Assembly (NCBI GenBank): GCA_965214705.1
Contig: OZ243972.1
Coordinates: 576,001-640,000, forward strand
Length of the DNA: 64,000 nt
Origin: Alphaproteobacteria bacterium
GTDB taxonomy: Bacteria; Pseudomonadota; Alphaproteobacteria; UBA828
Direction of reading: 5' to 3'
Below are positions 32,968 through 58,860 of this stretch, piece after piece. Every line of letters begins with the position of its first letter. Positions within the stretch are counted from its first letter, which is position 1. Under the pieces are notes generated by a model. The model saw only the letters and a list, made by a program, of their open reading frames with translations, did no database searches and had not been told where the DNA came from. The position numbers and the translations under genes are program-made.

Positions 32968-32973
32968 GGGTTT

Positions 32974-33015
32974 ACCATTTTCTGTCTACAGTGCACCATT
33001 TTCTGTCTACAGTGC
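32974..33015. repeat. Perfect 21-bp tandem duplication
   Basis: ACCATTTTCTGTCTACAGTGC twice, covering the stop codon of the R-M gene. Confidence 0.9.
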
Positions 33016-37086: not shown

Positions 37087-37346
37087 GCACCCATAGTCCG
37101 CGAATCGGCCCATCGTTTCAGCGTGACGCCATAAGCCTTCATCGCCATGGGAGGGTCAATAGCGATGCGATCCAACGAAATAACGAGCTGTTCGTTTCAA
37201 CGGCGGCAGAACTGAAGGTCACGAATAATCCGGGGTAGCGGATGTTCTTCAGCAGGCAACCCGGCAGGGTGGGTACCCAACGCCGCCGAGGCCGAACTCT
37301 GACCAACCGCGGCGGGAACTCGACATATCGCTAGAGCATGCAAACC

Positions 37347-38740: not shown

Positions 38741-38853
38741 CTTCGGTTCTAAGTGACTGATTCGATTGCAATGGTCTTCCGTTTCTATTGCCACAGGGCG
38801 CGGAATGCAAGCCCGTTCCGCACCCCGCTGCAACAGATCGGAGACGCGCGATC

Positions 38854-41616: not shown

Positions 41617-42345
41617 TCAGGAGCGGTTCTTGAAGCGCCAGCTCTCGTTGCCGGTCTCGATGATCTCGCAATGGTGAGTGAGACGATCGAGCAGGGCCGT
41701 GGTCATCTTGGGGTCGCCGAAGACGGACGGCCACTCGCCGAAGGCGAGGTTGGTGGTGATGATGGTGGAGGTGCGCTCGTAGAGCCGGCTCATGAGGTGG
41801 AAGAGCATCTGCCCGCCGGTCTGAGCAAAGGGCAGGTAGCCGAGTTCGTCGAGGATGACGAAGTCGCGGCGGCCGAGCTGGTCTGCGGTGCGGCCCTGGC
41901 GTCCGGCGCGGACCTCGGCCTCGAGGTGGTTGACCAGGTCGACGACGTTGAAGTACCGGCCGCGCGCGCCCTTTCGGATGCAGGACCGCGCGGTGGCTGT
42001 GGCAAGATGGGTCTTGCCGGTGCCGGTACCGCCGACCAGGACGATGTTGCGCTTGCTCTCCAGGAAGCCGCCCGTGGCGAGCTCCCGGATCAGGGGCTCG
42101 TTGACCGGCGAGGCGGCGAAGTCGAAGTCGGCCAGCTCCTTGGCGGTGGGCAGCTTGGCGGAGGCCATCTGGTACTTGATCGAGCGCGCCTTCTTGTCGG
42201 CGATCTCGGCCTTCAGCAGCGCACCGATGATCTGCTGCACCGGGTGACGGCGCTTGAGGCCGTCGGCGAGGATGTCGTCGTAGACGGCGCGCATGCCGGC
42301 GAGCTTGAGCCGGGTCATCATCTCCAGCACCTCATGACGCTCCAT
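41617..42345 (-). CDS. istB: IS21 helper ATPase IstB
   Basis: [31 protein letters not shown]. Confidence 0.95.
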
Positions 42346-43849: not shown

Positions 43850-44547
43850 CTCCCCCTCGCCTCGTCCGTCCAACGACGAGGCGTGTTCATGGTCACCAAT
43901 CCAAGGGGGGTCAATTTTGGACGCCGATCACCCCCAAGAGGGGGGCACTTTTCCACGCTTAACAACAGCCTCGAGGATGTGCGCTTCGTCCACGATCAGC
44001 AGATTCAGGCGCGCGAGGAACCGCTTGAAGGCGGGAACGGCGAGGTTGCGCATCAGCCACGCGTGACCGACATCTGGAGTGGCGATGACGATCCGCGCCC
44101 TCTCAAGCGCTTCCTTGCGATCCGGTTGCGGCACGTCGCCGGTGACGATTGCAATCCACTCCCCGGGCATCCCCGCCATCTCGAGAGCCCGCCGCCAGCT
44201 TACATCCTGGTCGGCCGCGAGCGCCTTGAGCGGATAGAACACCAGGATCCGGGCATCACCGTCATCCTGAAGCGTCTTGAAAGCCGCGGCCTGGAACACA
44301 AGCGACTTGCCAGACGCGGTTCCCGTTGAAAGCACCACGTTGCTGCCGGCCGCAAATGCTTCCAGTGCGAGGGCCTGATGCCGCCAGAGAGCGCCTTTGA
44401 GCGCGTCGTACGCCAGTAGCCAGCTGCTGACGGAGCCTCTCCGGCAAGTATCCGGGACTGGCAAGATCCTCTCTTCGCGCGCCGATAGCTCAAGCCGAGC
44501 GACGACGGAGTGACCCGCGTCCCTCAGTTGTCCCTCGAATACCTCAA

Positions 44548-44750: not shown

Positions 44751-45128
44751 GGCCGCGCCACCACCGTCGAAGAGCACAAACCGAAGGCGCACCAACGCGC
44801 CGGCGTCGAGGCCACCCGCGCCCAGCTGGAGAAGAACGCGCGCGATATCGGGCCCCATGTCCACGCCTACATCGTCGCGCTCATGAAGCGGCAGAACAAT
44901 CCGGAGTTCGGCTTCCGTGCCTGCTACGGCGTCCTCCGGCTGGCCAAAAGCTACGAGCAGGACCGCTTCGACGGCGCCTGCCGCTACGCGCTCGAACTCG
45001 GCACGCGGAGCTACCGCGGGCTCGAGAACATCCTGCGCACCGGCGCGGACCGCGCCGCCGCCGAGCAGGAACCCGAGACCATGCCCATCGATCATTCCAA
45101 CATCAGAGGACCGGAGGCCTACCGATGA
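44751..45128 (+). pseudogene. istA: IstA C-terminal fragment
   Basis: TT..EH.P.AHQR, FRACYGVLRLAK.Y...R...AC..AL, H.NIRGPE.Y. Confidence 0.8.
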
Positions 45129-45886
45129 CCGAAAACCCCGTCTCCCACCCGCTGGCCGAGCGCATCGCCTCGCTGCGCCTGCCAGGCATGCACGCCGCCT
45201 TCCTCGAGCAGGTGGCGCGCAACGACCTCGACGACATGCCCTTCGAGGATCGGCTCGCGCTGCTGATCGATCGCGAGATCGCCGAGCGCCGCTCCAGGGC
45301 CCTGCAGCGGCGCCTCAAGAGGGCGCAGCTGCGCCATCAGGACGCCTGCTTCGAGGATATCAACCTGAGCCGTCCGCGCGGCCTCGACCGCAGTCTCGTG
45401 CTCGGCCTCGCAGACTGCGCCTGGGTCCGCAACGGCGCCAACATCCTGATCACTGGACCGTGCGGCACGGGCAAGAGTTGGATCTCCTGTGCCCTTGGCC
45501 ACAAGGCCTGCCTCGAGGGCCACATCGCCCAGTACCACCGCGTGCCCAGGCTGCTCACCGAGCTGCGCATCGCCCATGGCGAGGGCACGACCCCGAAGCT
45601 CTACCGCGACCTCGCCCGCATTGAGGTGCTGATCCTCGACGACTGGGGCATCGCGCCCATTGATGCGGCTCGCGCGCGCGATCTCCTCGAAATCCTCGAC
45701 GACCGCTTCGGCCGGCGCTCGGTGATCGTCACCAGCCAGTTGCCGGTGGCCGATTGGCACCGCCAGCTCAACGATCCCACGGTCGCCGATGCCATCCTCG
45801 ACCGCCTCGTCCATGGTGCCATCCGCATCGAGCTGCACGGCACGTCCATGCGTATCGACGACGCTGCCGCAGGGAAAAAGGCATGA
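45125..45886 (+). CDS. istB: IS21 helper ATPase IstB
   Basis: GPCGTGKS, LILDDWG, TSQLP..W, ADAILDRLVH. Confidence 0.92.
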   Translation: MTENPVSHPLAERIASLRLPGMHAAFLEQVARNDLDDMPFEDRLALLIDREIAERRSRALQRRLKRAQLRHQDACFEDINLSRPRGLDRSLVLGLADCAWVRNGANILITGPCGTGKSWISCALGHKACLEGHIAQYHRVPRLLTELRIAHGEGTTPKLYRDLARIEVLILDDWGIAPIDAARARDLLEILDDRFGRRSVIVTSQLPVADWHRQLNDPTVADAILDRLVHGAIRIELHGTSMRIDDAAAGKKA

Positions 45887-46317
45887 ACGCGACTACAGAG
45901 CGCCGCGCTGCGCGCGGCGTGATCGTCGCTCCGCTCCGGGGCGTCGGAGGGGCGGGACGGATGGTGCCAGGCATGGCGCGCGCGCCGCCAGACGCGTGAG
46001 ATGTCTCACGCGCCGCGCGCGCACCATGCTCCACCGCCTTGCCACCGGGCCTTCGGCGGTGGTACCGATCACGGAGAAATCGCGGAGGGAGAACCGCCCA
46101 CAAAAACGTAACCGCGTCGCTTCGCTCCGGGGTGGCTACTTTGCTGAGATCGGGTGGCTACTTTGGATGAGATTCGCCGGCTACTTCGGGTGAGATTCAC
46201 CGGCTACATTGGTGAGACTGGGCAAACCCGCAGGTGCGGAAGAAGATTGAGGACGCTTATCCGGAACTCTGTGCAACAGGGCTGTACAAGAGCCGGAGTG
46301 CGTGGGCTTCGTAGTAG

Positions 46318-49300
46318 TCAACTGTGGAGCTTGGGAATCCGTCCATGCTCGAGCAACTCAAATGCTTCGAGCACGTAGCGCTGCGTCCGATACTCGCCGA
46401 AAGCCCGCATTTCGTTCTGCTTGAGGGATGGGAAGGATGAGCTTGGTGCCTGTGCATCCAAGATCCACTCGAGATCGGAACGAGTGATCCCGTACATCTG
46501 AGCAAAGATCGCATCCAATTCGCAGCGGAGACCGTGGCGGCGGTCATCATTCCAAGAAAATGGCGGCCCATCAAAACCAAGATCGTTGGCGAAGCTCCTA
46601 ATTTCCTCGGATGTATAAGTCAATTCCAAAACCCGCGGAACTATAAGTTGGACGTACGGATGGCCGGTGCTGCTTTCCCTTAAGTACGCATTTGGCGGCA
46701 AGAGAGGAAGTTGCTTGAGAATGAAAAAATTCATGTGGACACCACCAACGGAAAAGCGTGCGGCCCAGTCGAGAGGGAGACTGTTCAGATTTGCCAGTAT
46801 CAATGCAGATGAGATTGAGCGACCGAAGGCGTATTCTATCGTTGGGGCACTATTGCCCAAACCGCTTTTGGGCGCATTTGCTGTGACAAGAGTCCGTTCG
46901 TTTGTGGCGTTCGTAATGTCGCGAAACGCGTGAAACCACCTCGCAATTTCCGTTCGAACGAGGGGCCCTCCGTCGCTCACAGCTGCGGCTCGCAGGAAGG
47001 TGGCGATGGATGTTCGTTCGTTGGTTGCGTTTGTAACTTTCCTGAATACGAGGATCCAACTGTAATCACTACCGCTGTATTGCCCACTGCTGCAATCGGA
47101 ATCATGGCTACGACCCCAGTCCGTTGGTCGGTCGCTCGGACGATATCCCGAAGAGTGAGTTGCGAGCCAGTTCCGTAAGAGTGTCGAATACAGCTCGGCT
47201 CGGCTCGGCTCGGCTCGGCTCAACAATTGCGTAGTGTTTCCGCTTATGTCAAGTCTTTCCGCAACTTCTTCTTCCGGAACCCAGTATCTCGGAGTGGCGA
47301 CCGCGGACGGATCGGACTTCTCGTCCGCCGTCATCGGTCTGGCATTTCCGTTTCGGATGTCACGGTCGGAGACGCCGTCGAATGTGGCAAACCTGTGGTC
47401 GTACTGATGGAAGAGCTTCGCCTCATAGAGCGGCAGATATCTCTCGTCGCCTCGGACGAACACGTTATTGTCGAGTTCCCATCCTTCCTCCTCCATTTCC
47501 TGTCGGGTCTTGAACAGACCCGAGTCGTTGGACATATCGAACATACGCTGGAAACTCACGCCCCACGGGTTCTTTTCGGGCTGAGAACCGGTGGTTTCCT
47601 TCCAGAACACTCCGGCTCTCCGGTACATCTTGCGTGCGATGTCCATGTCTCGTCTCGTGCGGAAGATTGGGCAGGTCCGGGTGTTGGGGTTGAACAGCGA
47701 GAAGTCTTCGGCGCTGAGCGTGAAACGTCGCTCGGGTTCCTTTAATTGCTCCGCCTGATGCAGGAAGAACGCGAACTCGGCTTCAGGTACGGGGTTGCCC
47801 TTGCCGCTCAATGCGAGGAGGCAGAACTTGATCCTGCTATCAATGCCTGGGAAGACTTTCTCGCGGTTCTCAAAGTCATACAGGCTGACAAGCCGTGACT
47901 GGGTTACGGTGTGCTCGAAGAACGCCCTGGTGGAGTGGTCCGTGGCGATGCCCGTGGGCACGATCAACCCGGCCCGGCCCTGAGGCTTGACAAGCTGCAG
48001 GAACGTCTCGGCGAAGACGGCATAGGTGTTCAGGTCGCCGACGCCAGTGAGCGGGTATCGGCCTGCGGTCCGGGCAAACTGGGTCGTCGCCTCGGCTTCC
48101 CGCTTTGCGGCTTCAAACTCCTGGTACAGAGCTCTTTCCGCCGGGAGCGCGTCATCGCGATTCAATTGTTGGATGAGACGATCACGCGCAGCCTTGTTCG
48201 GCGCCGCTGCGATCTCCGGGGAACGAGAAGCGAAAAACTCCTGCTCCTGCAGCTTGATGCGTTCCCACGGCGGGTTTCCGAGAATAGCGTCGAATCCGCC
48301 GTCCTGCATGATCTCGGCGAACGCGAGATGCCAGTGATGAAAGCGGTAGGTGTGGCTGAGGTCTCGGACAAGGTTTTCGACACCGGGGCGCCGTGGGACG
48401 TTGCGGTCGAGGCGATCGATATCCTCGCTGAGAGGCACGATGTCGAGGCTGTCGCGCGTCTTTGGCGCGAAGTACGTCCCGACGAAGAGGTCGGCGCGCA
48501 TGGCCTCGCGGGCGCGGGTCTCGTCGCGCAGCACGGCATGCCAGGTCGCGCGCTTGCGCTCCACTTCTTCCAGTGTTTCCTCGGGCATGGCGTCCAGGTC
48601 GAGGCTCGAGATGGCGACCTCCATGACGGCATCCTGATCGAAGAGGCCGCGTTGCCCCCGATGCCGGTTGTTCCTCTTGAGGTCCCTGCAGACGGCCTTG
48701 TCATCGCCAGTCAAGGGCTTGTATGCGTCAGGAGTAACGCCGTTCGCCATGATCTCGGGATCGAGAATGCCGACCAGGCTGTCGCCCTGAAGGATGTGGG
48801 GATCGAGGAACGTGAGCGGCTTGCCGGGCTCGACCGTCTCCATCCAGAGCGCAGTCTTGCAGAGTTCGACGGCGAGCGGGTTCCGATCGACGCCATAGAT
48901 GCAGTGCTGGACCACCTCGCGCAGCGCGTGCTGGCGGGTACTTTCGTCCGACGTGTCCGCGCCGGACTCGATACGGGCGATCTCGGCGGCAAGGCGGCGG
49001 GCCGCAGCCAGCAGGAAATGCCCGGAGCCGCAGGCTGGGTCGACCACCTTCAGGTCGAGAATCGCGGCGCGCGGATCCTCGGGGCGTGCTTTGACGGCGT
49101 CCGCGATAACGGGGTCGAGCGTCGACTTGATGAGCTCGCTGACCAGCGACGGCGGCGTGTAGTAGGAGCCGGTGAGCTTTCGCTCGGACCCCTTGGCGCG
49201 TTCGCCATTTCCTTCACCGGTGAAGGCGAATGTCCAGGGCGAGGCGTCCACGTCGATGACCGGACGAAGCTCCAGAAGGCTCTCGTATACGGAACCCAAC

Positions 49301-50568
49301 TCCTCCGTATCCATGTCCCGGTAGTTGACGCGGGCGAGGCTGTTGCCGGAACGGAAGAACGCGAGGGTGCGGACGGCTTTGAGAAGATGATTGTTGGCGA
49401 TGGCGGCACCGTCGAGGTCGGGACATTCGCCGTCTCGGAACAGGCCACCGAGTGGCGGCAGCCCCAGTCCAGGAGCGCCCTGGGCTAGCGCGCCAAAGGT
49501 GATCTGAAGCCCTTGCCAGAGGTCGCGGTTCTCGTCGTAATGGCGGCGGCGCAGCGCGCGCTCGCGCAGCCGCGAGAGCGCGTAGCCGTTCACGAACACT
49601 GCTCTTTGTTCGTCCGCGGCGTCCGGCGCGTGAAGCAGGTTGCGCTCCTCGGCGGTGAAGAGAAAGAGCAGGCGATAGATGAGCCGAAGGAGCTGCTGGA
49701 AGTAGAGCTCCGATGAAAGCGCGCCGGTTTCGAGCGCTTCGCGCAGCTCGGTGTTCGCCGGATGGCGAAGGAACCCGTTTCCGATTTGACGCAGCGCGTC
49801 GGTGACGCCGTCACGGAGATTCTCCCGAATGCGTTCACCGGTCTCCTGCGCCTTGGCCCGCCAGGACTCGATGATGCAGCTCGACGGCTTGTCGTCGAGG
49901 GGCCGGAGGCGGCTTGAATGGGCGGTGAGCCAGAGGGCGGCGAAGTCGGGGTAGAGCTCTTCCGCGAAGACGAGGTCAAGGTCGGCCTCGATGTAGGACG
50001 GCCGGGTCAAGCTCGGATTGTCGCGCAGGATCCGGAGCTTGGAACCGTTGGAGATCATGCCCCACAGCGCAGCGTCCTCGGCATTGAGGTACTCCTGCAT
50101 CATGCCCTGTGGCGCCTGCCGTCGGCCGTCGTGACCGAGACGCGGATCGGCCCTGTCGAGGTCAAAATCGTGCGTGACGAGCAGCAGCGGCACGGCGCCT
50201 TCGCAGGCGCGGTGTGTCAGCCGGAACACGCGGCCTTCCAGCACGACGCTGTCGGCCGCTATAAGATCGTCGTAGCCGAGGAGCGAACGCAGGAAGGGGA
50301 CGAGCCATTCTTCGACGTCGACCTGGGGCGCGGTGAGATCCCGGCGGGGACGGCGCTCTGAATAGCGTCCGTAGAGATCGTTGGCGATGCGCCAGTAGCG
50401 GGCAAGCTCCTCCTTGATTGCAAGCGATTTCGAGAGGCCGTAGTCGGCGCCGGTCTGACGGGAGGCTTCCAGCGCGGCGACAGCGTGCAGGAATTCCGAG
50501 GGGAGGATGCCCCCTTCAATCTTCAGGGCCGTGAAGCCGCGGCTAGCTCGGACGTTCGCCATGGTCAC
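46318..50568 (-). CDS. Large N6-adenine DNA methyltransferase (Eco57I/DrmMI-like) with internal SSR and triplicated TRD segment
   Basis: SNG..LR.LRD, GSYYTP, DPACGSGHF, GNPPWE, PLYEAK; overlaps the SNF2 gene stop. Confidence 0.9.
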   Translation of the reverse strand: MTMANVRASRGFTALKIEGGILPSEFLHAVAALEASRQTGADYGLSKSLAIKEELARYWRIANDLYGRYSERRPRRDLTAPQVDVEEWLVPFLRSLLGYDDLIAADSVVLEGRVFRLTHRACEGAVPLLLVTHDFDLDRADPRLGHDGRRQAPQGMMQEYLNAEDAALWGMISNGSKLRILRDNPSLTRPSYIEADLDLVFAEELYPDFAALWLTAHSSRLRPLDDKPSSCIIESWRAKAQETGERIRENLRDGVTDALRQIGNGFLRHPANTELREALETGALSSELYFQQLLRLIYRLLFLFTAEERNLLHAPDAADEQRAVFVNGYALSRLRERALRRRHYDENRDLWQGLQITFGALAQGAPGLGLPPLGGLFRDGECPDLDGAAIANNHLLKAVRTLAFFRSGNSLARVNYRDMDTEELGSVYESLLELRPVIDVDASPWTFAFTGEGNGERAKGSERKLTGSYYTPPSLVSELIKSTLDPVIADAVKARPEDPRAAILDLKVVDPACGSGHFLLAAARRLAAEIARIESGADTSDESTRQHALREVVQHCIYGVDRNPLAVELCKTALWMETVEPGKPLTFLDPHILQGDSLVGILDPEIMANGVTPDAYKPLTGDDKAVCRDLKRNNRHRGQRGLFDQDAVMEVAISSLDLDAMPEETLEEVERKRATWHAVLRDETRAREAMRADLFVGTYFAPKTRDSLDIVPLSEDIDRLDRNVPRRPGVENLVRDLSHTYRFHHWHLAFAEIMQDGGFDAILGNPPWERIKLQEQEFFASRSPEIAAAPNKAARDRLIQQLNRDDALPAERALYQEFEAAKREAEATTQFARTAGRYPLTGVGDLNTYAVFAETFLQLVKPQGRAGLIVPTGIATDHSTRAFFEHTVTQSRLVSLYDFENREKVFPGIDSRIKFCLLALSGKGNPVPEAEFAFFLHQAEQLKEPERRFTLSAEDFSLFNPNTRTCPIFRTRRDMDIARKMYRRAGVFWKETTGSQPEKNPWGVSFQRMFDMSNDSGLFKTRQEMEEEGWELDNNVFVRGDERYLPLYEAKLFHQYDHRFATFDGVSDRDIRNGNARPMTADEKSDPSAVATPRYWVPEEEVAERLDISGNTTQLLSRAEPSRAELYSTLLRNWLATHSSGYRPSDRPTDWGRSHDSDCSSGQYSGSDYSWILVFRKVTNATNERTSIATFLRAAAVSDGGPLVRTEIARWFHAFRDITNATNERTLVTANAPKSGLGNSAPTIEYAFGRSISSALILANLNSLPLDWAARFSVGGVHMNFFILKQLPLLPPNAYLRESSTGHPYVQLIVPRVLELTYTSEEIRSFANDLGFDGPPFSWNDDRRHGLRCELDAIFAQMYGITRSDLEWILDAQAPSSSFPSLKQNEMRAFGEYRTQRYVLEAFELLEHGRIPKLHS
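46820..47169 (-). repeat. Three divergent tandem copies of a 37-40 codon TRD segment
   Basis: Copy 1 (shifted frame) LRDIVRATDQRTGVVAMIPIAAVGNTA; copy 2 WILVFRKVTNATNERTSIATFLRAAAVSDGG; copy 3 WFHAFRDITNATNERTLVTANAPKSGLGNSA; unit starts at 47169, 47058 and 46938. Confidence 0.8.
47193..47221. repeat. Pentanucleotide simple sequence repeat (GCTCG)5 + GCTC inside the MTase
   Basis: Directly visible; encodes SRAEPSRAE just before the TRD copies. Confidence 0.92.
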
Positions 50569-53423
50569 AGGGATGCCATGGGCATGAAGACGTACACGCC
50601 GATTTTGTCGACGGGTAGTGCCGGAACGACGTCGTAGCGCAGCCCCCTGGCGTCGCTCGCCTCGCGGACGCGGCGATGGTCTGCGAGCAACCCGCGGGCC
50701 TGCTCATGGGCAACGCGTGCGAATGCGTCTTCCATCCCCGGCAACGCGTCGAGGGCCTGCCGTACGAGGTGGACCTTCTGGCCGTCCGCCATGTTTCGTC
50801 CGGGCTCCAGCGTGAGAAGCGACAACGCGTCGTCCTCGGTCATTATTTCGGGACTGGCGCCGCCCCGGACCGCAACGCCCAGACACTCCTCGGCGAGAAG
50901 TGACCTGAGCGGCGAGAAGCGGCCGTCCGGCCCGCGCCGCTCTATCTGGAGTTGGCAGCGCAGGCGCAGGAGATAGAGCACGGTGCGGGTGTCGACCGCG
51001 CGCGTGAACATCGCCCCCGCGCGGGCGCCGATTTTCGGATTGGTAGCGTCGAGCGCCTTCTCGGCGACATAGTCCGCCAGCACTGCCACAAGCGGATGCG
51101 CACGGTGGATATAGTCCGCACCGGCCGGGGCGGGCTGGGCGAAAGCGATCTTCGCCGATGCATCGAATCCGATGGCGTCGAGACGATCCTGAAGGGGCTT
51201 CGGGAAATGAACGACCGGCATCCGGCAATAGCCGTCCCGTCGGTCAATAGCAGCGCCCAGGCGCTCTGCGGACAGACGCACGAAGCGGTCGACATCGCTG
51301 GGACCGCCCAACACCGATACGGCTTTGCGCCATTCGGGAAGCACGTCGTCCGGGGTCAGGCGGCGCTGGGCGAAGACCGTGCGCGTCATCCGGTTGCTGG
51401 CCGTGCGCCATGCGTCGTCCACTTCGGTCTCGGTCTCGGCGAATTCGAAGGCCATTTGGTCGGCCCGGGAATGTCTGCCGCGGTGAAGCAGGACGGCCTT
51501 CATGATGGCGTCGATCACCTTGTTGTTGTCCGCGGGCAAGGGCACGGCGACGCCGAGTTCCTTGCGGATCTTTTCGGCCTTGCGAAGGATCACGCGGAGG
51601 ACGGCGCCGTCGACGGGATTGTTCTCGCCGTAGAGCATGAGCGCGCGAACGGTGCGGGAAGCTTGGCCGAAACGGTCGGCTCTGCCCTCGCGCTGTTCGT
51701 GGCGGGTCGGATTCCAAGTGAGGTCGTAGTGGACCACGGCGTTGAAGTGGTTCTGGAGGTTGACACCTTCGGACAGGCAGTCAGTGGCAACCAGGACGGG
51801 CGTAATCTTCTCATCGAGTTCACCGAGCGCCTCGACCCGCTCTTCGCGTTGATCGGAAGTGAGCTCCCCGGTGACCACGGCGACATGGGCATTTCCGGCA
51901 CCCAACGCCTGCTTCAGTTCGTGGCCAACATAGTGCGCGGTGGCGATGTAGCGGCAGAAGACGACGGGCCGGAAACCGTCGAGCACGAGCCGGCCGACCT
52001 CGTCGATCAGCGCCGTGAGCTTGGGATCGTTCCTCGGACCGCGCAACGAATCCGCCCGGTCGATGAGCTGGCGCAGGGCCTTGGCATCCTCGGCCTCGAC
52101 GGTGCCGGCGGGAACGCTCTCGGTGAGGGCGAGTGAGTCGTCGGCCGTCTCGTCCATCACGGTTTCGCCTGCCTTCCGGTCCAGGTGTTCGACCTGCGCA
52201 TCCTCCGTGTCGCCCTCGGTTGCCTGGAGACGGGTTCGAAGCGCGAGCGACGCGGCGGCCGGGCTTGAGGAAGCGCAGCGCAGCAGCGCGAGCGCGGCCC
52301 ACCAAGACATTCGTTGCTGAAGCCTGGTCCCTTCCGAAGTGCGGTCGACCATGGTTCTTGCGTAGTCGAGGACGTCGTCGAACAGGCCGCCCCATTCGCC
52401 GGTCAGGCGGTAGGTCGCTTCCCGGCTTTCGCGGACCGGAAAGCCTGCCTCGTCCTTCCACTCGGCGATGTCGCCGCGTCGGCGCTGCACGAAATGCAGC
52501 GCGAGTTCTTCGCGCAAGCGGCGGCGCATCTCGCCTTCGGGTGCGTCGGCCAACGCCATGAATTTCGTTTCCAGCAAGCCAAGCAGGTTGTGAAAGGCGG
52601 TGTCATCGCCCGAATGCGGTGTCGCGGTGAGGAACACCATGTGCCGGCGCGGCTCGCTGCCCGCGAGGCCTTTGAGAAGCTGGTAGCGCTGGTGTCGGGT
52701 ATCCGTGTTCGATCGCACGCAGGCGTGCGCCTCGTCGACGATGACGAACTCCGGGCAGGCGCGAAGGAAATCGCTGCGGCGCCGATCCGACTTGATGTAG
52801 TCGAGGGAGACGACCGTATAGGGATGCACCTCGAACACTGACTCATCCGGGCGAAGACCCCGCTCCAGGCGGGTGGCGGTGCCGGTGCGCACGACCTCGG
52901 CGTCGATGGCGAACTTCTCCGAGAGTTCCCGTTGCCACTGTTCGCACAGGTGGGGCGGGCAGATGACGGAAAGGCGCTCGATCTCGCCCCGGTCGAGCAG
53001 TTCCCGCGCGATCAGGCCTGCCTCAATGGTCTTGCCGATACCGACGTCGTCGGCGACGAGCAACCGGATGGTGTCGAGCTTCAGGGCCATGAGCAAGGGA
53101 ACGAACTGATAGGCGCGCGGTTCGACATTAAGATTGCCGAAGCTGCGGAAAGGTCCCGCGCCGGCACGCAACTTGAGGCGAAGCGCGTCGCGCAACAGCA
53201 GCGCTGCCTGCTGGGAGCCTGGCGCGTCGGGATTGGGAAGATCGAACGTCGCGGGCACCGGCGCCTCGGGTTCGAGCGGAAGGTAGATGAGCGTCGCATC
53301 GTCTTCCGCGCCGCCGAGCGGACGAAGCTTGAGGAGATCGTCGCGCGGCTCGGGGAGGACCACCCACTCGCGGTGCCTCGCCCTGACTAGGTCTCCCGGC
53401 ATGAAGGTGATCGCCGCGTCCAT
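50565..53423 (-). CDS. SNF2-family helicase (DrmD-like)
   Basis: PRAYQ, LVADDVGIGKT, IVDEAH, LTATPH, SEGVNLQ, WNP.RHEQREGRADRFGQ; GGAGG RBS before ATG 53423. Confidence 0.9.
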   Translation of the reverse strand: MDAAITFMPGDLVRARHREWVVLPEPRDDLLKLRPLGGAEDDATLIYLPLEPEAPVPATFDLPNPDAPGSQQAALLLRDALRLKLRAGAGPFRSFGNLNVEPRAYQFVPLLMALKLDTIRLLVADDVGIGKTIEAGLIARELLDRGEIERLSVICPPHLCEQWQRELSEKFAIDAEVVRTGTATRLERGLRPDESVFEVHPYTVVSLDYIKSDRRRSDFLRACPEFVIVDEAHACVRSNTDTRHQRYQLLKGLAGSEPRRHMVFLTATPHSGDDTAFHNLLGLLETKFMALADAPEGEMRRRLREELALHFVQRRRGDIAEWKDEAGFPVRESREATYRLTGEWGGLFDDVLDYARTMVDRTSEGTRLQQRMSWWAALALLRCASSSPAAASLALRTRLQATEGDTEDAQVEHLDRKAGETVMDETADDSLALTESVPAGTVEAEDAKALRQLIDRADSLRGPRNDPKLTALIDEVGRLVLDGFRPVVFCRYIATAHYVGHELKQALGAGNAHVAVVTGELTSDQREERVEALGELDEKITPVLVATDCLSEGVNLQNHFNAVVHYDLTWNPTRHEQREGRADRFGQASRTVRALMLYGENNPVDGAVLRVILRKAEKIRKELGVAVPLPADNNKVIDAIMKAVLLHRGRHSRADQMAFEFAETETEVDDAWRTASNRMTRTVFAQRRLTPDDVLPEWRKAVSVLGGPSDVDRFVRLSAERLGAAIDRRDGYCRMPVVHFPKPLQDRLDAIGFDASAKIAFAQPAPAGADYIHRAHPLVAVLADYVAEKALDATNPKIGARAGAMFTRAVDTRTVLYLLRLRCQLQIERRGPDGRFSPLRSLLAEECLGVAVRGGASPEIMTEDDALSLLTLEPGRNMADGQKVHLVRQALDALPGMEDAFARVAHEQARGLLADHRRVREASDARGLRYDVVPALPVDKIGVYVFMPMASL

Positions 53424-53440
53424 TTCCTGTCCTCCAGATC

Positions 53441-56400
53441 TCATTTCGGGGCCGACGACGCGCCCGGCCCGAAAACCCAAGCGTACTCGTCAACAACGCG
53501 GGCCCACGATGTCCGATCCTCGTCGAAGCGCACGACCGTGAGTCCGGCGTCGTGGAGGCGTCGGGTTACCTCGGCGTCGAGGGTCTGTTGGCGATCGCCT
53601 CGATGGTGAGGGCCGTCGATATAGACCAGGGTCTGATCAGCGGTGTAGGCGAAATCGGGCCGAGTATCGAATTCCTCCAGGTAGGGCTGCGCCCGGTCGG
53701 GGAGGCGGTAACCGTTGTCCTTGATGTAGCGCAGCCAAGCCTTCTCCAGAGCGGAGCCGGCGACGTTGTTCAGTTCCTCGAAGTCGTCGCCGGCGCTTGC
53801 GGAATGGCCGAGGCTCCTTCGCTCGCCGCGGGTCAGCCGGCATAGCAGATCGAGCATGGCTTCGTCGCGCCGGTCGATCATCGGATGGTCGGGCTGATTG
53901 TAGTAGCTCAGCAGGCAGCGGTAGCAACCAGCCTCGCAATCACTATCGCGGTTGTCGAGGTCATCCCATCCGGTCCAGCGTCCGGAGCGCGATGTGTAGT
54001 GGCAGACTTCGAGCGCCTTGCGGGCGATCCGGCCAAGCGCGCCGGGATCGCTGGCGAGACGCGTAAGAACGCCCGCGCCGCCTTCGGCGGACTCGTAGAA
54101 CAGGATGGTGGTGCGGTTATCGCGGTCGGGCAGCGGCTCGGCGGCAAGCTCCGCTTCCTCAAGTTGAAACTCTTGCTCGATGCCACGCTTGATGGCGTAT
54201 TGCAGGGAGACCATGGCCGTCTCGCTGAGATCGACCGTCGGACGAAGCACGAGGACGTTGCGGGTATCTTCGACGAAGGGGGTGATGCGCTGGACGCTTT
54301 TTCCGTCCCGCACGGCGTCGTCTTCCGCGTCGGTGGGCGCCTGCGAGTCTTTGGTCCATTCGCCGGTGTTGGCATCCACGCTGAAGCCGTAGACGGATTT
54401 CTCCTCGCGACGGCGCCAGCCGAGATTGATGCGCCAGAGCGTCGAGGCCGGGCCGTAGCGCAATTCCAGCAGGGTCTGGCCGCTTTCCTCGACGGCGAAA
54501 CTCTCGACGCGGGCGCGGCCGTTCTCTTCGCTGTAGCGAAGCGTGGTAACCATTTCGTAACCTTGGCGCTGGCGTTCTTCCTCGTCCGAAGTGATTCGGT
54601 TCACCCGCTGGGTCGACACCTGTTCGATGCGGTAGAGATTGAGAATCGCTCTCCCGCCATCCAGACGCGCGTCGCAACTGACGCAGCGTTCATAGTCCTT
54701 CTGATCGCCGAAGTGGCCGTAGCCGCAGGCGGGACAGATGCGCGCGGCCTGAACCGGGAGCCTGGCCGACGCGGTCACGCCGGCTTCGTCGCGAATGGAC
54801 AGGATGGCGCGGCGCACGCGGTAGGTGCTTCCCTCGTGATAGATGATGGACTGGGGGCCGAACTCGGTGAGGCCGAGAAAGCGGGGCCGGCTCAGGAACG
54901 AGTCGCGGGCCACCTTCTCGCGGCGGCCCGGAACGAAGGCCATCAGCGGCAGGCGCGGGAAGTTGTAGCCTGGCAGGAACCCTTCGGCGGCTAGATAGCG
55001 ATAGGTGTAGAAGTCGGAATTCATCGTCGGCCTGCTGTGCAGAAGCAGGTTTTGCTGGGTGTACGCTTCGTCGTACCGTGCCTTGGCTTCGCGGCGCTCC
55101 TGTTCGGTCGAGGCGGCGTTGTTGACGACATCGTTGGCGAACTTCATCTGGTTCGCCGTCGCGCGAAACAGCGAACGCCAGCGGCCGAACGCGTCGTCGA
55201 AGCGACGATCGGCGGAATTCATCGCGTTGGCCAACCATGTGTCGGTGTACCAGGGGGCGGCTTGCCGCGAGAGATCCGGCGTGAGTGTTGAAAGAATGCG
55301 CTGCGCGCGGACGCTCGCATCGCTGACCGCCCGGGGGGATCGGATCTGCTCGGCGATCTGGTCGTGCAGGGGCAGCGTGTCAGGCTTTTCCCGGTCGAGC
55401 ACGTCACGCACGGAGGAGCCGAGCATGATGCCGGTTTCCGCGAGCCAGACGGCCTGAAGGTGGCTGCGGATCAGGTCCTCGTTCGCGAGATCGATGTTCG
55501 GGGGATTGACGGCGCCAGCCACCATGCGCGTCGGGTCGGCGAAGAAGTATTGGTCATGCGGCGACTTCGCGGCGCAGTAGGTGACGACCAGCGCAGGCTG
55601 GCCGCTGCGCCCGGCCCGCCCGCTGCGTTGGGCGTAATTCGCGGGCGTGGGCGGCACGTTGCGCATGTAGACTGCGTTCAGCGTCGAGATGTCGACGCCG
55701 AGTTCCATGGTCGGTGAGCAGAACAGTATGGGCAGCCCGGCGGGTTCGAGACCCTTGCGGAAACGGAGCTCACGCTCCTCACGGGCATCGGTGTCGACCT
55801 GGGCGGTATGTTCGCGCGCCTCGAGCTGGTGGAGAAGGCGGTCGTCGCTGTTGAGGAGCACGGCCACGTTCTCGTAGAGGTTGCGGAAAAACACATTGGC
55901 CGCGCCCAGGTCCGCCGTGGCCTCTCCGGCGAGGCGCCATTCAAGCACCGAACCGTCGATGCGGTAGCCGGTGCGATCGCCGTCGAGGTCCTGTGGCTCG
56001 ACATAGCCGTAGGTGGCAAGCACGCTCAGGAGGTCGTCGATGACGGTGTTGTAGACGTCCTCGTCGAACTTGGGCGGATAGCAGGGATTACCCTGCCCCC
56101 AAAATGACTGGGACTTCACCTTGCGGCCGAAAGCTGATCGGTGAGACATATGAAGAATGCGAAAATCCCGCCGGGGTCCGCGGCCGCCGGGTCTGGGCAC
56201 CATGAAGGCATGAGAGAACAGGCGCTCTTCCTCCGATAGTCCCCACGGCTCCTTCAACTGGTTGAAGCTTCGGTTGCGTATCTGTTCTTGAAAGTTCGGA
56301 TCGAGGTAAATGGTCTTGATGCACAGCGCTCTTCGCATGCGCTCAAGAAGGTCACTTACTAATTCGAAGCGGCGCGTGGGCTCGATGGAGCCGAGCAGCG

Positions 56401-58669
56401 GATGCCGTGCGCGCCATTCCTCTTCATCTTCGCAGCAATCCATGAGGCCTCGGTAGCCGATGTCCAGCAACTCCAGCTGCTCAAGATTGGGGTTGGTGAT
56501 GCGCCAGCCGCGCTGCAAATCGAAGTAGAGCCGGTAGCCGAGTACGTCGCGAAGCGTCTTGATCGTGTTCTGGGCCTTGATGCCCTTGGCCTCGGCATTG
56601 GCTGAGTAGTCCCACGCGTCTAGGTGCAGGCGGGCGAGCACGGCCTGGGTCAGAACGTCGTCGGTGAGCAATCCGCCGGGCTCGGCCCGAATGGCAGAAA
56701 GGAGCGCGCCCCGCAGCAGCAGAATCTGTATGAAGTCGTTGAAGTGGCCGGCCTGGAGGCTTGCGTCCTGACGGTTGTCGGTGAACGCGAGTAGCTTCTT
56801 GGTCTGCTCGTCGAGGTCTGCGCCAATGAGATGCTTCAGCGAGGAGAGCGCCAGCACCGTCGTGGCGGAGCTCCGGCCCTCGCTAGAGAGCCCCGAGAGC
56901 TTGGTCATGTCGCTCCGAACGCTGCCGTCGTAGTAGGCGTCGCAATCCGGATGCAAGCAGAAGCGGAAGGGTCCCGGGATGAACCAGGCGGGCAGGCCGT
57001 CCACAGACACGGCACCTCGCGTATCGACCCGGACACCGAAGGGCCGGTAGCGGCGGAAATGGGACTTGAGCCGGGTCTCGTCGCCGCGGAATTCCAGCCA
57101 GTCCTCCGGGTACTGGTTCTCGGTGTCCGTAGGATCGAACAGTCCGAAAGGGTCCGGCATGAGATAGCCGAACTGGACGTCCTCGTCGTCGTTGGATCGT
57201 TCGGACAGGTCGCGGGGTTCGAAGGCGTGCGGCTGCTTGCCGACATGCTTCGCCCAGACCGGCAGGTATTCCTGGCCGCAGGCGCGGCAGAAGGCGAGGG
57301 AGAAAAGAGAACGGTCGCGGTCTCCGGGTTTGAATTGCTGCCCGTGCAGGGTGAGATACCGCTCGTCCGGCGCTTCAAGCGTCGTGTAGGCGTTCCAGGC
57401 GCCGCTGATGAACTGGTGCAGCCGGAAGGCGAAGAAGCTCTGGCCTCGCTCATTCCGGCTTCGGTGGGCGGTCAGGAGAAAGTTCGCTAAATAGTCGCGG
57501 CAATGCTGCGCGTCGAGTCCGCTGTCGACGGAAAGACGATCCGAAGCCTGGAGAACGGTCAGCGGACGCGAAATTCGCACGAGCTTGCCGCCTTGCTCTT
57601 CGAGCCCGAGATTGCGCTCCACCCAGGTCGCGGCCGGGTGGGCCGCGAGCGCTTGATGTGTCGGATTCGCGGGAACGCCCCGCTCGATGGAGGCGCGCAG
57701 ATCGGAGCTGCTCAGGCTCGCGTCGTGGTCGGTGACCGGCCGTAAAGTTTCCGAAACGACATTGCCGGGATCGACAGTTGCACCGAACAGGCGGCTTGCG
57801 ATGGCCGCAACGGCGGCGTTCCGGTCGTCGGGCGAGCCTTCGGAGGCCATCGTCGCCGAGGTGCCGATACAGAGAAGGCGCTCGTTGAACCTCTCCCGGA
57901 CGCGTCGGACGAGCATGGCGACATCGGCCCCCTGCCGCCCGCGATAGGTGTGCAACTCGTCGAGAACCAGGAACCGGAGTCCCTTGGCGTGTTCGCGGAT
58001 CGCCTTGTCAGTCTCGTGGAACCGCGTCATGACCAGCTCGAGCATGACGTAGTTGGTCAGCAGAATGTCAGGAGGGTTCTTTGCGATCCGCTCGCGTTCA
58101 TCCTGCGATTCCTGCCCGGTGTATCGGGCGAACGTGACCGGCTCGCCGCCTTCGCCGTAACCGAGCCGCAGATACTTCTCCAGTTCCTCGCGCTGGCTGT
58201 TGCAGAGCGCGTTCATCGGATACACGACGATGGCGGTGATGCCCTTGCAGGCGTCGCCGGCACGCTTTCGCCGCAATACGTTGTCGACGATCGGGATGAA
58301 GTAGGCGAGCGATTTGCCGGAGCCGGTGCCTGTGGTCAGGACGTAGCTTTCGACCCGTCTAGCGATTTCGATGGCCTCAGTCTGGTGCCGGTGGAGCAGG
58401 AGTCGCTCGCCGAATGTGTTGTACCCACGCTTCAGCCGGAACACCTTCGCGCACTCAGCATCGAGCGTGCCGTCAGCGACCAGGTCGTCGATATATCCGC
58501 CGGGCTCGAAGTTCGGATTGAGCTGGATAAGCGGGGCGGGCCAGAAGTGGCCCTCGGCGTAGGCCGCATCGACTTCGCGGGAGATGTCCTCGGAGCGGAT
58601 CCTGGCGAAGCTTCGGGAGAAACGCCCGTACTCGGCGACGAGTTCCTCCCGGAAGGCGAATACGTCCAT
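53441..58669 (-). CDS. YprA-type DEAD/DEAH helicase with DUF1998 and C-terminal Vsr/DUF559-like nuclease domain
   Basis: HQ, TGTGSGKS, YPMNAL, LDELHTY.G.QG, SAT, TMELGVDI, YAQRSGRAGR, GGAG, C..GCY.CL; C-terminal RPDFAY..VYIDGPHH. Confidence 0.9.
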   Translation of the reverse strand: MDVFAFREELVAEYGRFSRSFARIRSEDISREVDAAYAEGHFWPAPLIQLNPNFEPGGYIDDLVADGTLDAECAKVFRLKRGYNTFGERLLLHRHQTEAIEIARRVESYVLTTGTGSGKSLAYFIPIVDNVLRRKRAGDACKGITAIVVYPMNALCNSQREELEKYLRLGYGEGGEPVTFARYTGQESQDERERIAKNPPDILLTNYVMLELVMTRFHETDKAIREHAKGLRFLVLDELHTYRGRQGADVAMLVRRVRERFNERLLCIGTSATMASEGSPDDRNAAVAAIASRLFGATVDPGNVVSETLRPVTDHDASLSSSDLRASIERGVPANPTHQALAAHPAATWVERNLGLEEQGGKLVRISRPLTVLQASDRLSVDSGLDAQHCRDYLANFLLTAHRSRNERGQSFFAFRLHQFISGAWNAYTTLEAPDERYLTLHGQQFKPGDRDRSLFSLAFCRACGQEYLPVWAKHVGKQPHAFEPRDLSERSNDDEDVQFGYLMPDPFGLFDPTDTENQYPEDWLEFRGDETRLKSHFRRYRPFGVRVDTRGAVSVDGLPAWFIPGPFRFCLHPDCDAYYDGSVRSDMTKLSGLSSEGRSSATTVLALSSLKHLIGADLDEQTKKLLAFTDNRQDASLQAGHFNDFIQILLLRGALLSAIRAEPGGLLTDDVLTQAVLARLHLDAWDYSANAEAKGIKAQNTIKTLRDVLGYRLYFDLQRGWRITNPNLEQLELLDIGYRGLMDCCEDEEEWRARHPLLGSIEPTRRFELVSDLLERMRRALCIKTIYLDPNFQEQIRNRSFNQLKEPWGLSEEERLFSHAFMVPRPGGRGPRRDFRILHMSHRSAFGRKVKSQSFWGQGNPCYPPKFDEDVYNTVIDDLLSVLATYGYVEPQDLDGDRTGYRIDGSVLEWRLAGEATADLGAANVFFRNLYENVAVLLNSDDRLLHQLEAREHTAQVDTDAREERELRFRKGLEPAGLPILFCSPTMELGVDISTLNAVYMRNVPPTPANYAQRSGRAGRSGQPALVVTYCAAKSPHDQYFFADPTRMVAGAVNPPNIDLANEDLIRSHLQAVWLAETGIMLGSSVRDVLDREKPDTLPLHDQIAEQIRSPRAVSDASVRAQRILSTLTPDLSRQAAPWYTDTWLANAMNSADRRFDDAFGRWRSLFRATANQMKFANDVVNNAASTEQERREAKARYDEAYTQQNLLLHSRPTMNSDFYTYRYLAAEGFLPGYNFPRLPLMAFVPGRREKVARDSFLSRPRFLGLTEFGPQSIIYHEGSTYRVRRAILSIRDEAGVTASARLPVQAARICPACGYGHFGDQKDYERCVSCDARLDGGRAILNLYRIEQVSTQRVNRITSDEEERQRQGYEMVTTLRYSEENGRARVESFAVEESGQTLLELRYGPASTLWRINLGWRRREEKSVYGFSVDANTGEWTKDSQAPTDAEDDAVRDGKSVQRITPFVEDTRNVLVLRPTVDLSETAMVSLQYAIKRGIEQEFQLEEAELAAEPLPDRDNRTTILFYESAEGGAGVLTRLASDPGALGRIARKALEVCHYTSRSGRWTGWDDLDNRDSDCEAGCYRCLLSYYNQPDHPMIDRRDEAMLDLLCRLTRGERRSLGHSASAGDDFEELNNVAGSALEKAWLRYIKDNGYRLPDRAQPYLEEFDTRPDFAYTADQTLVYIDGPHHRGDRQQTLDAEVTRRLHDAGLTVVRFDEDRTSWARVVDEYAWVFGPGASSAPK

Positions 58670-58860
58670 CAGCGGCTCCTCGACCCCGCGTCGTTGGCGC
58701 GCGCCTCGATCGCGGCGCACCGCTCCATCAGCGCATCGCACGCTCCGGCGTCATCAAGCAGCATGCCATCGGCCAACATCCGTGCATAGTCATCGGCGAG
58801 TACGGCAAGCGCGGCGCCGGCGGGCACGAGTTGCAGGTCGCCGGATACCGCTGCTTCGTA

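Follow-up and report, generated by a model that had tools for sequence, protein, structure and literature searches.

The window, a stretch of 64,000 nt from an alphaproteobacterial genome (contig OZ243972.1, positions 576,001 to 640,000), carries on its minus strand a DISARM-like defence operon (Table 1). The methyltransferase gene P0001 is the subject of this analysis. Its product matches the Pfam families Eco57I (5e-19), N6_Mtase and MmeI_Mtase, and over part of its length the PADLOC model DrmMI (1.4e-75), so that the DrmMI-type N6-adenine methyltransferase of Class 1 DISARM is present. The helicase encoded next to it scores better in PADLOC as DpdE (4e-199) than as DrmD (3e-86), and reaches 329 bits with the NCBIfam DrmD model against a curated cut-off of 610. 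The 1766-aa protein further upstream holds DEAD, Helicase_C and MZB/DUF1998 domains in one chain according to Pfam; DruE heads its PADLOC names, and the NCBIfam DrmA model gives 18.6 bits against a cut-off of 950. A PLD domain, as in the phospholipase-D nuclease DrmC, was not found in the open reading frames scanned between 28 and 64 kb of the window, and we therefore name the system DISARM-like rather than DISARM.

Table 1. Features of the methyltransferase gene and its operon in the window (64,000 nt; positions are those of the window).
Feature	Position	Strand	Remarks
DrmMI-like / Eco57I-type N6-adenine DNA methyltransferase gene (P0001)	46318..50568	-	1416 aa; ORF list and translation
SNF2-type helicase (DrmD/DpdE-like)	50565..53480	-	upstream, in one operon with P0001; Pfam SNF2-rel_dom and Helicase_C
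DEAD helicase fused to MZB (DUF1998) domain	53441..58741	-	1766 aa; resembles DrmA+DrmB and DruE
PRYWVP motif	47275..47292	-	conserved; anchor for finding the repeat site in relatives
Pentanucleotide repeat (GCTCG)5.8, given for the + strand	47193..47221	-	period 5, 5.8 copies, 100% matches (Tandem Repeats Finder)
Linker of the full-length form, aa 1126-1170	47059..47193	-	copy 1 in the wrong frame; hydrophilic, stop-free; pLDDT below 50
Copy 1 of the unit, SQLTLRDIVRATDQRTGVVAMIPIAAVGNTAVVI	47058..47165	-	encoded in the +1 frame
Open +1 frame, 80 codons, would terminate the short isoform	46977..47219	-	repeat peptide, copy 1 and 27-aa tail
TAG, first stop of the +2 frame	47108..47110	-	where the product lacking a unit would end if one repeat unit were lost
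Copy 2 of the unit, WILVFRKVTNATNERTSIATFLRAAAVSDGGPLVRTEIA	46942..47058	-	main frame; dN/dS 0.28; low model confidence, pLDDT 40-47
Copy 3 of the unit, RWFHAFRDITNATNERTLVTANAPKSGLGNSAPTIEY	46831..46941	-	main frame; dN/dS 0.15; pLDDT 76-89
Remaining recognition domain and C-terminal helical part	46321..46830	-	pLDDT above 90; full-length phase only

The pentanucleotide repeat lies at about residue 1117 of 1416, within the recognition domain. On the coding strand it reads CGAGC/GCCGA and is translated as SRAEPSRAE. Three units of about 38 aa follow it. The gene is now in its full-length phase, open across all 1416 codons, and the main frame runs from the repeat on as ...SRAEPSRAE-LYSTLLRNWLATHSSGYRPSDRPTDWGRSHDSDCSSGQYSGSDYS-WILVFRKVTNATNERT... 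(copy 2) and next RWFHAFRDITNATNERT... (copy 3). In the +1 frame the repeat is followed by GSQLTLRDIVRATDQRTGVVAMIPIAAVGNTAVVI (copy 1), and this frame ends inside copy 2 at a TGA (46979-46977) that overlaps a GTG codon of that copy. From anchor to anchor, copies 1 and 2 are 107 nt apart and copies 2 and 3 are 120 nt apart. The DNA identity among the three units is only about 65% (mean column identity), which marks them as old duplicates. Tandem Repeats Finder did not detect them as a DNA tandem repeat; their DNA aligns weakly and they are recognisable only as protein.

By frame arithmetic, a gain of 5 nt shifts the downstream reading to the +1 frame of copy 1, and a loss of 5 nt shifts it to the +2 frame with its TAG. 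The original prediction had described the repeat, the three units and their frames, with copy 1 out of frame and copies 2 and 3 in frame, and was right in every point that could be checked. It had also foreseen that one unit gained leads into copy 1 and a stop inside copy 2, that one unit lost leads to an early stop, and that a paralogue of the enzyme has a single such segment; both outcomes occur naturally in relatives (below), and in this paralogue, P0002 (33007-37113, minus strand), there is one unit without any repeat.

The region that follows the catalytic domain has, in the predicted model, the fold of the recognition domain of a gamma-class N6-adenine methyltransferase. VIA-align places M.BseCI on top (Z 15.2, rmsd 3.6, 246 residues aligned, chain residues 245-576), followed by CamA (Z 14.9), BpuSI (12.7), BrxX/PglX (12.4), M.TaqI (10.0) and MmeI (10.0); the matches extend to about model residue 460. 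Clear matches came from this aligner only: Foldseek on the recognition region gave no match at E 0.001 or better, Pfam on the last 486 aa no family at E 10 or better, and a PDB sequence search with the same C-terminal 486 aa no meaningful match. The units lie inside this recognition domain, where the original prediction had placed them, and form three strands of a single domain; copy 3 is the one that the predicted model builds into it. The unit may resemble the TaqI_C motif. For the natural short isoform the predicted fold has a mean pLDDT of 66, with copy 1 at 44-48. This poor prediction neither supports nor excludes a stable short protein; such a protein, lacking the domain's second half, might be unable to recognise DNA specifically.

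The arrangement is widespread. A repeat lies within 300 nt after PRYW in 39 of 114 distinct related loci, all periods of 1-12 having been searched, and in 37 of these 39 it starts 63-85 nt past the first base of PRYWVP. The unit is 5 nt long in 19 loci, 4 in nine, 10 in three, 1, 2 and 7 in two each, and 8 and 11 in one each; its length is divisible by three in none of the 39. The site is thus conserved and the unit sequence is not. Peptide repeats of period 5, 7 or 10 mark the same site in 27 of the 118 PRYW-bearing proteins (120 listed). By record titles the loci come from Alphaproteobacteria, Rhodothermales, Latescibacterota, Dehalococcoidia, Thermodesulfobacteriota and others. They are related, partly by horizontal transfer, and so locus counts and p-values overstate their independence. 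The same repeat site, units and frame offsets recur in dozens of distant loci, which is far more than chance.

All three phases are found in nature. In the 28 loci readable on both sides of the repeat, the C-terminal frame is offset from the N-terminal one by 0 in nine, by +2 in eight and by +1 in 11, a phase read from an assembly of a mixed population being a consensus call; 19 of the 28 are thus in a state that excludes the C-terminal half of the methyltransferase. The copy 1 phase is seen at loci L011, L019 and L075, and the early-stop phase at L014, L015 and L021. Six database proteins of 804-1242 aa, one being the query's own record, end about 30 aa past copy 1. Of 122 listed proteins, 44 have two motif matches, which in most rows are separated by 40 residues; copies 2 and 3, the units in frame, are constant in the subfamily.

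The tract itself is highly variable between genomes, as had been anticipated. The window's own unit recurs in differing counts in three genomes of the same family, two of which belong to the window's genus. In relatives it is found at 9, 13, 15, at least 16-25, and 38 copies, those with 9, 13, 15 and 38 being members of the genus or family. Genome G028 has 13 units and the full phase, G012 has nine, the copy 1 phase and an additional frame break upstream, and in G014 the contigs end inside the repeat. With 5.8 units the window's tract is the shortest among the loci found with this unit, and for that reason the window may switch rarely. In the window's organism, contigs of two other sequencing runs bridge the repeat at the same length with 0 differences and 0 gaps; those of a third run break at 47184-47228 and a fourth gives partial cover only, so that neither of the latter proves anything. 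No tract-length variant appeared in the Logan contigs of this organism. Among locus pairs with different tracts the closest was 88% identical over 460 nt, too distant to show a recent switching event.

Selection acts on the DNA past the repeat in both frames. Read in its own frame in 27 loci from several phyla, copy 1 has a dN/dS of 0.29 with 0 stops in 918 codons (0.30 in a 14-locus set), and its differences at the three codon positions are 0.45/0.26/0.59. Purifying selection acts on the hidden unit when it is read in this frame; it is no junk, in line with its original description as a unit kept out of frame. The same DNA read in the main frame also has 0 stops in 918 codons, with a dN/dS of 2.1; in the third frame there are 86 stops. 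The main-frame reading evolves freely, yet it stays stop-free. In a sister subfamily each of the three units has a frame of its own: the DNA of unit A is stop-free whichever frame is read, that of unit B is open in two, with 31 stops in the third, and that of unit C is open in one, which is exactly what a three-frame design requires. The RDIxxATNERT core is nearly invariant even in homologues at 35-40% identity, and no unit shows diversifying selection (dN/dS 0.11-0.39). At 26 of 29 junctions the hidden frame closes with a TGA that shares bases with an ATG or GTG; where the overlap encodes valine, the codon is GTG in 11 of 11.

We consider it probable that the slippage-prone repeat and the frame-offset units together form a contingency locus within the recognition domain of a DISARM-like methyltransferase and act as a conserved three-state isoform switch. 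Two features looked for in contingency genes are present: a repeat within the coding frame whose unit is not a multiple of three (5 nt and 5.8 copies here; 0 of 39 divisible in relatives), and a tract length that differs between close genomes (5.8, 9, 13, 15 and 38 copies in the genus and family), together with the occurrence of different phases (9/8/11 among the 28 loci). The repeat, its unit never a multiple of three, is placed in a surface linker that immediately precedes a three-strand unit. The DNA past it codes in more than one frame, with each successive unit copy offset by one frame (spacing of 2 mod 3), and owing to these offsets each repeat phase joins the N-terminal body of 1,100 aa to a different unit. 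The repeat is then a gate that sets which unit joins the enzyme in frame, as the original prediction held. Only a single phase continues into the remaining domain and the C-terminal helical part.

In the current phase the window would yield the 1416-aa enzyme, with copy 1 read as a disordered, stop-free linker ahead of copies 2 and 3 and of the C-terminus. With one repeat unit gained, or two lost, the product would be about 1,200 aa long and would end in copy 1 and the 27-aa tail. With one unit lost, or two gained, it would be about 1,150 aa long and unit-less. We infer that slippage switches the phase within lineages often enough to be of use, and that the activity of the isoforms is not the same. 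Our guess is that the full-length form is methylation-competent, that the short forms ending in a unit are folded and partly or differently active, and that the unit-less form is null.

A bolder version, to which we give a small chance, makes the repeat a programmed three-position selector, in which each phase gives a functional enzyme whose recognition domain has a different hairpin at its centre, and in which a C-terminal fragment, produced when the ribosome terminates and re-initiates at the conserved ATGA/GTGA overlap, completes the short forms. If this were true, one gene with overlapping frames would give two or three methyltransferase or defence variants, the variants could differ in target preference or in helicase coupling, and the population could hedge against phages and their anti-defence proteins.

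A split enzyme, which we hold to be rather unlikely, would use the same overlap. In the copy 1 phase the ribosome would stop at the TGA overlapping the GTG/ATG of copy 2 and restart, and the C-terminal fragment (the last part of copy 2, then copy 3 and what remains of the domain) would reassemble with the N-terminal one, so that the cell would alternate between copies 2+3 and copies 1+3, possibly with different target preference. The ATGA/GTGA overlap at 26 of 29 junctions speaks for it; however, the V/M codon is one homologous column, and the 26 cases are therefore not independent. The natural N- and C-terminal fragments of L019 are predicted to bind with an ipSAE of 0.85 against 0.00 for the best control; 58 of 80 solved complexes attain this mark, as do 2 of 110 mismatched pairs. 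At least 70% of contacts are the same between runs, the partner has a pLDDT of 79, and the copy 1 strands (residues 216-256) lie in the interface. The two fragments are halves of one domain, though, and the pass mostly reflects such likeness and the supplied alignments; it is also silent on whether the C-terminal fragment is made. Upstream pairing of Shine-Dalgarno type gives a mixed picture: only 7 of 16 loci have -5 kcal/mol or stronger, and the window has -2.2. The proteins P0004 and P0046 speak for the split enzyme, being natural single chains that have copy 1 in frame, next a part of copy 2 and finally copy 3.

Plain ON/OFF phase variation, with copy 1 as a functionless relic of an old tandem duplication, is in our view just as improbable as the split enzyme. 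Repeats that switch genes ON and OFF are documented for Type I and Type III methyltransferases (PMC5909438, PMC7383803), and a short isoform without half of its recognition domain, poorly folded in the model, would suit an OFF state. A relic is expected to decay, however, and the hidden unit instead keeps a dN/dS of 0.29 without a stop in 918 codons across 27 loci and several phyla; the position of the hidden-frame stop is conserved, and the sister subfamily maintains a unit in every frame. Decay is seen at L049, which has only an interrupted G tract at the site and has lost the RT motif of copy 1, as expected once switching stops, in this single case.

The idea of a library of specificity cassettes picked by slippage and by deletion or recombination between units, or of an enzyme with several recognition domains, was the interpretation originally offered, and it seems to us very improbable. 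The units do lie in the recognition domain, and their number varies by subfamily (one, three or four). Against this, the spacing of 107 and 120 nt is constant in 10 of 13 subfamily I loci, the ten with all three anchors, and no locus has a unit deleted between conserved flanks, so that the deletion and recombination part finds no footing. Neither does the part on specificity: a unit of about 38 aa is a fraction, a few strands, of one domain, and the core motif, nearly invariant family-wide and without diversifying selection, is unlike specificity-determining cassettes. The original prediction had set itself against homologues that all share the same two in-frame units at a fixed repeat length; the two units are indeed fixed, which counts against it, and the repeat length is not, which counts in its favour.

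That the locus is an assembly artefact or a decaying pseudogene is in our view extremely unlikely: repeats are error-prone in assemblies and G012 has its further frame break upstream, but the window's gene has no stop within its 1416 codons, contigs of two other runs show the same tract, and assembly errors cannot produce the selection pattern.

Slippage of repeats in restriction-modification genes is usually viewed as a binary switch. Two related cases go beyond this: in Neisseria NgoAV a polyG frameshift reportedly gives a truncated HsdS that is shorter yet functional, and the Haemophilus lic loci have start codons in several frames, so that more than one frame around the repeat is productive. 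Neither is known to have, unlike the present locus, tandem spare segments downstream of the repeat, each in its own frame and under purifying selection. Phasevarions, in which simple sequence repeats lie in Type III mod or Type I hsdM/hsdS genes, share the frame-shifting repeat in a defence methyltransferase gene and the strain-variable tract; as described in PMC5909438 and PMC7383803 they are ON or OFF, whereas here there are selected, frame-shifted spare domain segments and two or three phases would give distinct proteins. The programmed inversions in Class 1 DISARM drmMI and BREX pglX genes (Milman et al. 2023, PMC9881135) concern the same gene family and have the same apparent aim, population-level variation of a defence methyltransferase. 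In that account they are recombinase-driven and use silent partial gene copies, whereas here there are no inverted copies and the frame would be chosen by slippage. The Type IIG enzyme Cj0031 of Campylobacter jejuni, cited in the same paper, is likewise a large fused Eco57I/Type IIG methyltransferase with a hypermutable tract; the tract is a polyG homopolymer acting ON/OFF, and the citation there makes no mention of spare units in other frames. A literature search, with most subscription journals outside its reach, did not find spare domain segments in alternative frames behind a methyltransferase repeat. The nearest papers that it turned up were that on the inversions (PMC9881135) and a preprint of 2026 (10.64898/2026.04.01.715767), which treats a different subject, the suppression of frameshifts in mod genes of Mycoplasma.

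In this family selection has shaped the sequence past the repeat so that the 'wrong' frames, too, would code for a folded piece of the recognition domain. A single stretch of DNA doubles as a structured unit and, read in a different frame, as a stop-free linker, a rare and clear natural example of selected dual or triple coding in bacteria. Many DrmMI-like genes annotated as 'frameshifted' or 'truncated' are probably alternative states and not pseudogenes. The locus also gives a handle on the role of the C-terminal half in these defence methyltransferases, a half that most of the phase-readable loci (19/28) exclude.

The repeat and the units behind it sit in the 3' third of a methyltransferase gene, the last gene of a three-gene operon. 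Its product carries Eco57I, N6_Mtase and MmeI_Mtase domains (Pfam) and is assigned to DrmMI by PADLOC (1.4e-75). Because no phospholipase-D gene was found among the window ORFs scanned and no NCBIfam DISARM model reached its curated cut-off, we call the system DISARM-like. The operon is directly preceded by two IS66-family transposase genes in tandem; with the DruA ORF and two tyrosine integrases, the window as a whole resembles a defence island rich in insertion sequences. The imperfect 23-bp repeat between an IstB gene and the end of the methyltransferase gene is presumably the multi-repeat end of an IS21-family element. A DEAD helicase fragment adjoins an IS21-type pair (together 41617-44464), and this insertion seems to have interrupted a second helicase gene. 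G+C is 0.49-0.59 across the recognition-domain third of the methyltransferase gene (46300-47900) versus 0.62-0.67 in its remainder, and falls to 0.52 near the 3' end of the paralogue (32000-34000); both 3' parts may be of different origin, e.g. via recognition-domain exchange.

Coordinates of the features discussed (window positions)
Feature	Position	Strand	Details	Source
Methyltransferase gene	46318-50568	minus	1416 codons	ORF list, translation
Operon gene 2	50565-53480		SNF2 helicase	domain scan, PADLOC
Operon gene 1	53441-58741		1766-aa DEAD helicase fused to MZB/DUF1998 domain	domain scan, PADLOC
Repeat	47193-47221		(GCTCG)5.8, 100% matches	Tandem Repeats Finder
Copy 1	47165-47058	minus	+1 frame	
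Copy 2	47058-46942	minus	in frame	
Copy 3	46941-46831	minus	in frame	
Stop after gain of one unit	46979-46977		TGA, within copy 2	
Stop after loss of one unit	47110-47108		TAG	
Paralogue	33007-37113		one unit, no repeat	
Tyrosine integrases	37347-38513, 38766-41150			
IstB of IS21-type pair	41617-42345			
IS21-type transposase	42332-43873		rve and Mu-transposase C domains	
DEAD helicase fragment	43928-44464	minus	178 aa	
IstB gene	45125-45886			
Imperfect repeat	46134-46217		23-bp unit x3.7, 79% matches	
IS66-family transposases	58922-60412, 60648-62138		496 aa each	
ORF with DruA (Druantia) domain	62277-63365			

The original prediction of a repeat, three units and their frames is borne out by Tandem Repeats Finder and frame translations. 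The coding strand reads the repeat as SRAEPSRAE, and the DNA of copy 1 (SQLTLRDIVRATDQRTGVVAMIPIAAVGNTAVVI) gives 45 hydrophilic, stop-free residues in the main frame. Gain of one 5-nt unit brings copy 1 into frame, and loss of one unit leads into the +2 frame and an early stop, both as foreseen; the paralogue indeed has a single unit, and it also lacks the repeat. Logan contigs of two runs span the repeat with the tract length of the window, those of one run break at 47184-47228, and a fourth run covers the flanks only.

The site was followed in 63 loci from species-representative genomes and 80 further loci from metagenomes, the latter fetched with a query wholly upstream of the repeat, so that phase cannot bias the sampling; relatives of the window itself were searched in addition. 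A repeat lies at most 300 nt behind the conserved PRYW anchor in 39 of 114 distinct loci, starting 63-85 nt past it in 37 of them. The unit is 5 nt long in 19 loci, 4 nt in nine, 10 nt in three, 1, 2 and 7 nt in two each, and 8 and 11 nt in one each; with all periods from 1 to 12 searched, no unit length in the 39 loci is divisible by three. The unit sequences are highly diverse (GCCGA, GACAG, GACAC, GACAA, CGGAT, CAGA, CGAC, ACCGAGA, polyC and others). Hence, selection keeps a frame-shifting repeat at this site and not a particular sequence.

The repeat itself appears, from pairs of loci with very similar units, to turn over fast: the repeat units differ (CGGAT in L018, GACAG in L023) or the counts are very different for such pairs (15 and 36 copies of GACAC in L017 and L024). 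The window's own unit occurs at differing counts in three genomes of its family, two of them in its genus. One genome has 13 copies and is in the full-length phase (G028), another has nine and is in the copy 1 phase (G012), and in a third (G014) contigs stop inside tracts with minimum lengths of 16 and 25 units. Several other short-read contigs of relatives also terminate within the repeat. The tract of the window is the shortest among loci with a GCTCG/GCCGA unit. No long repeat stands at the site in three loci: L022 has a G9 run; L049 has a G tract with interruptions, and its copy 1 has lost the RT motif; L103 has roughly three GCCGA units in degenerate form and is fixed in the copy 1 phase. 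The G012 orthologue (L075), from the window's genus, has a second frame break some 160 codons before PRYW and may be decaying.

Phase, defined as the C-terminal versus the N-terminal frame, is readable on both sides in 28 of the 39 repeat loci; in the other 11, either the C-terminal motif or the sequence past the repeat is missing. All three phases occur naturally: nine loci are in frame 0 (full-length), eight in frame +2, where the N-terminus reads into copy 1 or its equivalent, and 11 in frame +1, the early-stop phase or, in a sister subfamily, the unit A phase. The proposed role of the repeat as a gate choosing the unit is supported.

In subfamily I, to which the window belongs, copy 1 is offset by one frame from the C-terminal frame, in which both copies 2 and 3 stand; the spacings are 107 and 120 nt. 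In subfamily II, units A, B and C stand in three different frames, 110 and 113 nt apart; frame A stops 7-9 codons past unit A, frame B about 25 codons past unit B, and only frame C continues into the remaining protein. Unit B is similar to copy 1 and unit C to copy 2. One locus (L092/L093) apparently has four units, in frames 1, 0, 2 and 2 relative to the N-terminus, the third placed from spacing alone; it looks like the subfamily I layout with a fourth unit, which would give a unit in every frame. Two subfamily II loci are irregular, L020 (~4870) and L095 (~1000 nt past PRYW), each with an extra unit resembling copy 3, some 670 nt past unit C and in another frame again; their 3' ends may be duplicated or rearranged.

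Residues 1000-1416, used as a protein query, gave a list of 120 relatives. All the closest of those listed (45-67% identity) have copies 2 and 3, 40 residues apart, which makes the pair a fixed feature and no variable array; a loose motif count gives two matches in 44 of 122 proteins. The variation sought among homologues is found in the length of the repeat, but not in copies 2 and 3, nor in the unit spacing, which is constant in subfamily I. Peptide repeats of period 5, 7 or 10 occupy the repeat site in 27 of 118 proteins (e.g. AEPSR, AEQSR, NRTEQ, DQTRP, KPSQA, SSKLEAR), with up to 29 copies, and the main-frame 'junk' behind them is recognisably conserved (NWLATRSQEDH.GDRRADGNLRHDS...). In two relatives without the repeat (P0004, P0046), copy 1 is in frame and leads on into copy 2. 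Queried with the tail of a naturally occurring product of the copy 1 phase, the database gave six proteins of 804-1242 aa that end about 30 residues past copy 1, one being the query's own record.

Stop codons and median dN/dS in the unit regions; the loci are kin, so the figures overstate independence, yet they leave no doubt on the direction of the effect
Region	Loci	Frame	Stops	dN/dS
Hidden unit just before C-frame unit	27	own	0 in 918 codons	median 0.29
Hidden unit	27	main	0 in 918 codons	median 2.1
Hidden unit	27	third	86 in 918 codons	median 0.74
Copy 2	13	own	0	median 0.28
Copy 3	14	own	0	median 0.15
Copies 2 and 3		off-frames	11-31 each	
Unit A, subfamily II	6	all three	0	0.39 (own frame)
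Unit B	7	own and C	0	0.17 (own frame)
Unit B	7	A	31	
Unit C	8	own	0	0.11

Low dN/dS and the lack of stops in its own frame indicate that the hidden unit is kept as protein; copy 1 is real, as proposed, and not junk. The main frame over it, stop-free with a dN/dS above two, is kept open only. For the hidden unit in its own frame, the three codon positions show mean pairwise differences of 0.45, 0.26 and 0.59 in turn, position 3 exceeding position 2 with p = 1e-7, a value that overstates the independence of related loci. The stop pattern of subfamily II is exactly what a three-frame design requires.

The hidden frame ends at a TGA overlapping an ATG (15) or GTG (11) of the next unit in 26 of 29 junctions, 67 or 70 nt past that unit's anchor, and a valine at the overlap column is always GTG. 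Judged from these junctions, the position of the end is constrained. Termination at this TGA followed by re-initiation at the overlapping start codon is a thinly founded explanation, which rests on one homologous column, and Shine-Dalgarno-like pairing is limited to 7 of 16 loci and lacking in the window. In its favour, the N fragment of L019 and the putative C fragment from that locus pass complex prediction (score 0.85, best control 0.00), at a mark that 58 of 80 solved complexes and 2 of 110 mismatched pairs also attain; the runs share at least 70% of contacts, partner pLDDT is 79, and copy 1 residues lie in the predicted interface. Since two halves of one domain were used, with alignments of our own making, this pass mainly reflects that likeness and is no evidence for production of the C fragment. 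The other part of the original proposal, a cassette library reshuffled by deletion or recombination, is unsupported because the spacing is constant, the core motif nearly invariant family-wide and no unit fast-evolving.

The AlphaFold2 model of residues 931-1416 (80-row alignment) has a mean pLDDT of 80.8, with values below 50 for model residues 180-278 (repeat peptide, linker, copy 2), 76-89 in copy 3 and above 90 in the C-terminal helices. Foldseek returned no match to this model at E 0.001 or better. The second-look aligner VIA-align matched recognition domains of gamma-class adenine methyltransferases: M.BseCI (Z 15.2, rmsd 3.6, 246 aligned), CamA (14.9), BpuSI (12.7), BrxX/PglX (12.4), M.TaqI and MmeI (10.0 each) and HsdS (7.7). 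The units therefore form strands within a single recognition domain. For the short isoform that occurs naturally at L019, the model is poor (mean pLDDT 66, 44-48 in copy 1), with strands predicted nonetheless.

Repeat-driven ON/OFF switching is well described for Type I and Type III methyltransferases (PMC5909438, PMC7383803). According to PMC9881135, DrmMI and PglX genes vary through programmed inversion, and Cj0031 through a polyG tract. The literature covered (main texts, mostly of open-access journals) yielded no account of a repeat followed by spare domain segments in other frames. The best-supported reading is a conserved isoform switch with three states, driven by slippage and encoded in frames that overlap, in which slippage of the repeat would set one of three phases and so a different isoform of the methyltransferase. 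The signs of selection show that the short isoforms matter, and the models suggest that these isoforms, taken alone, would lack half of the DNA-recognition domain.
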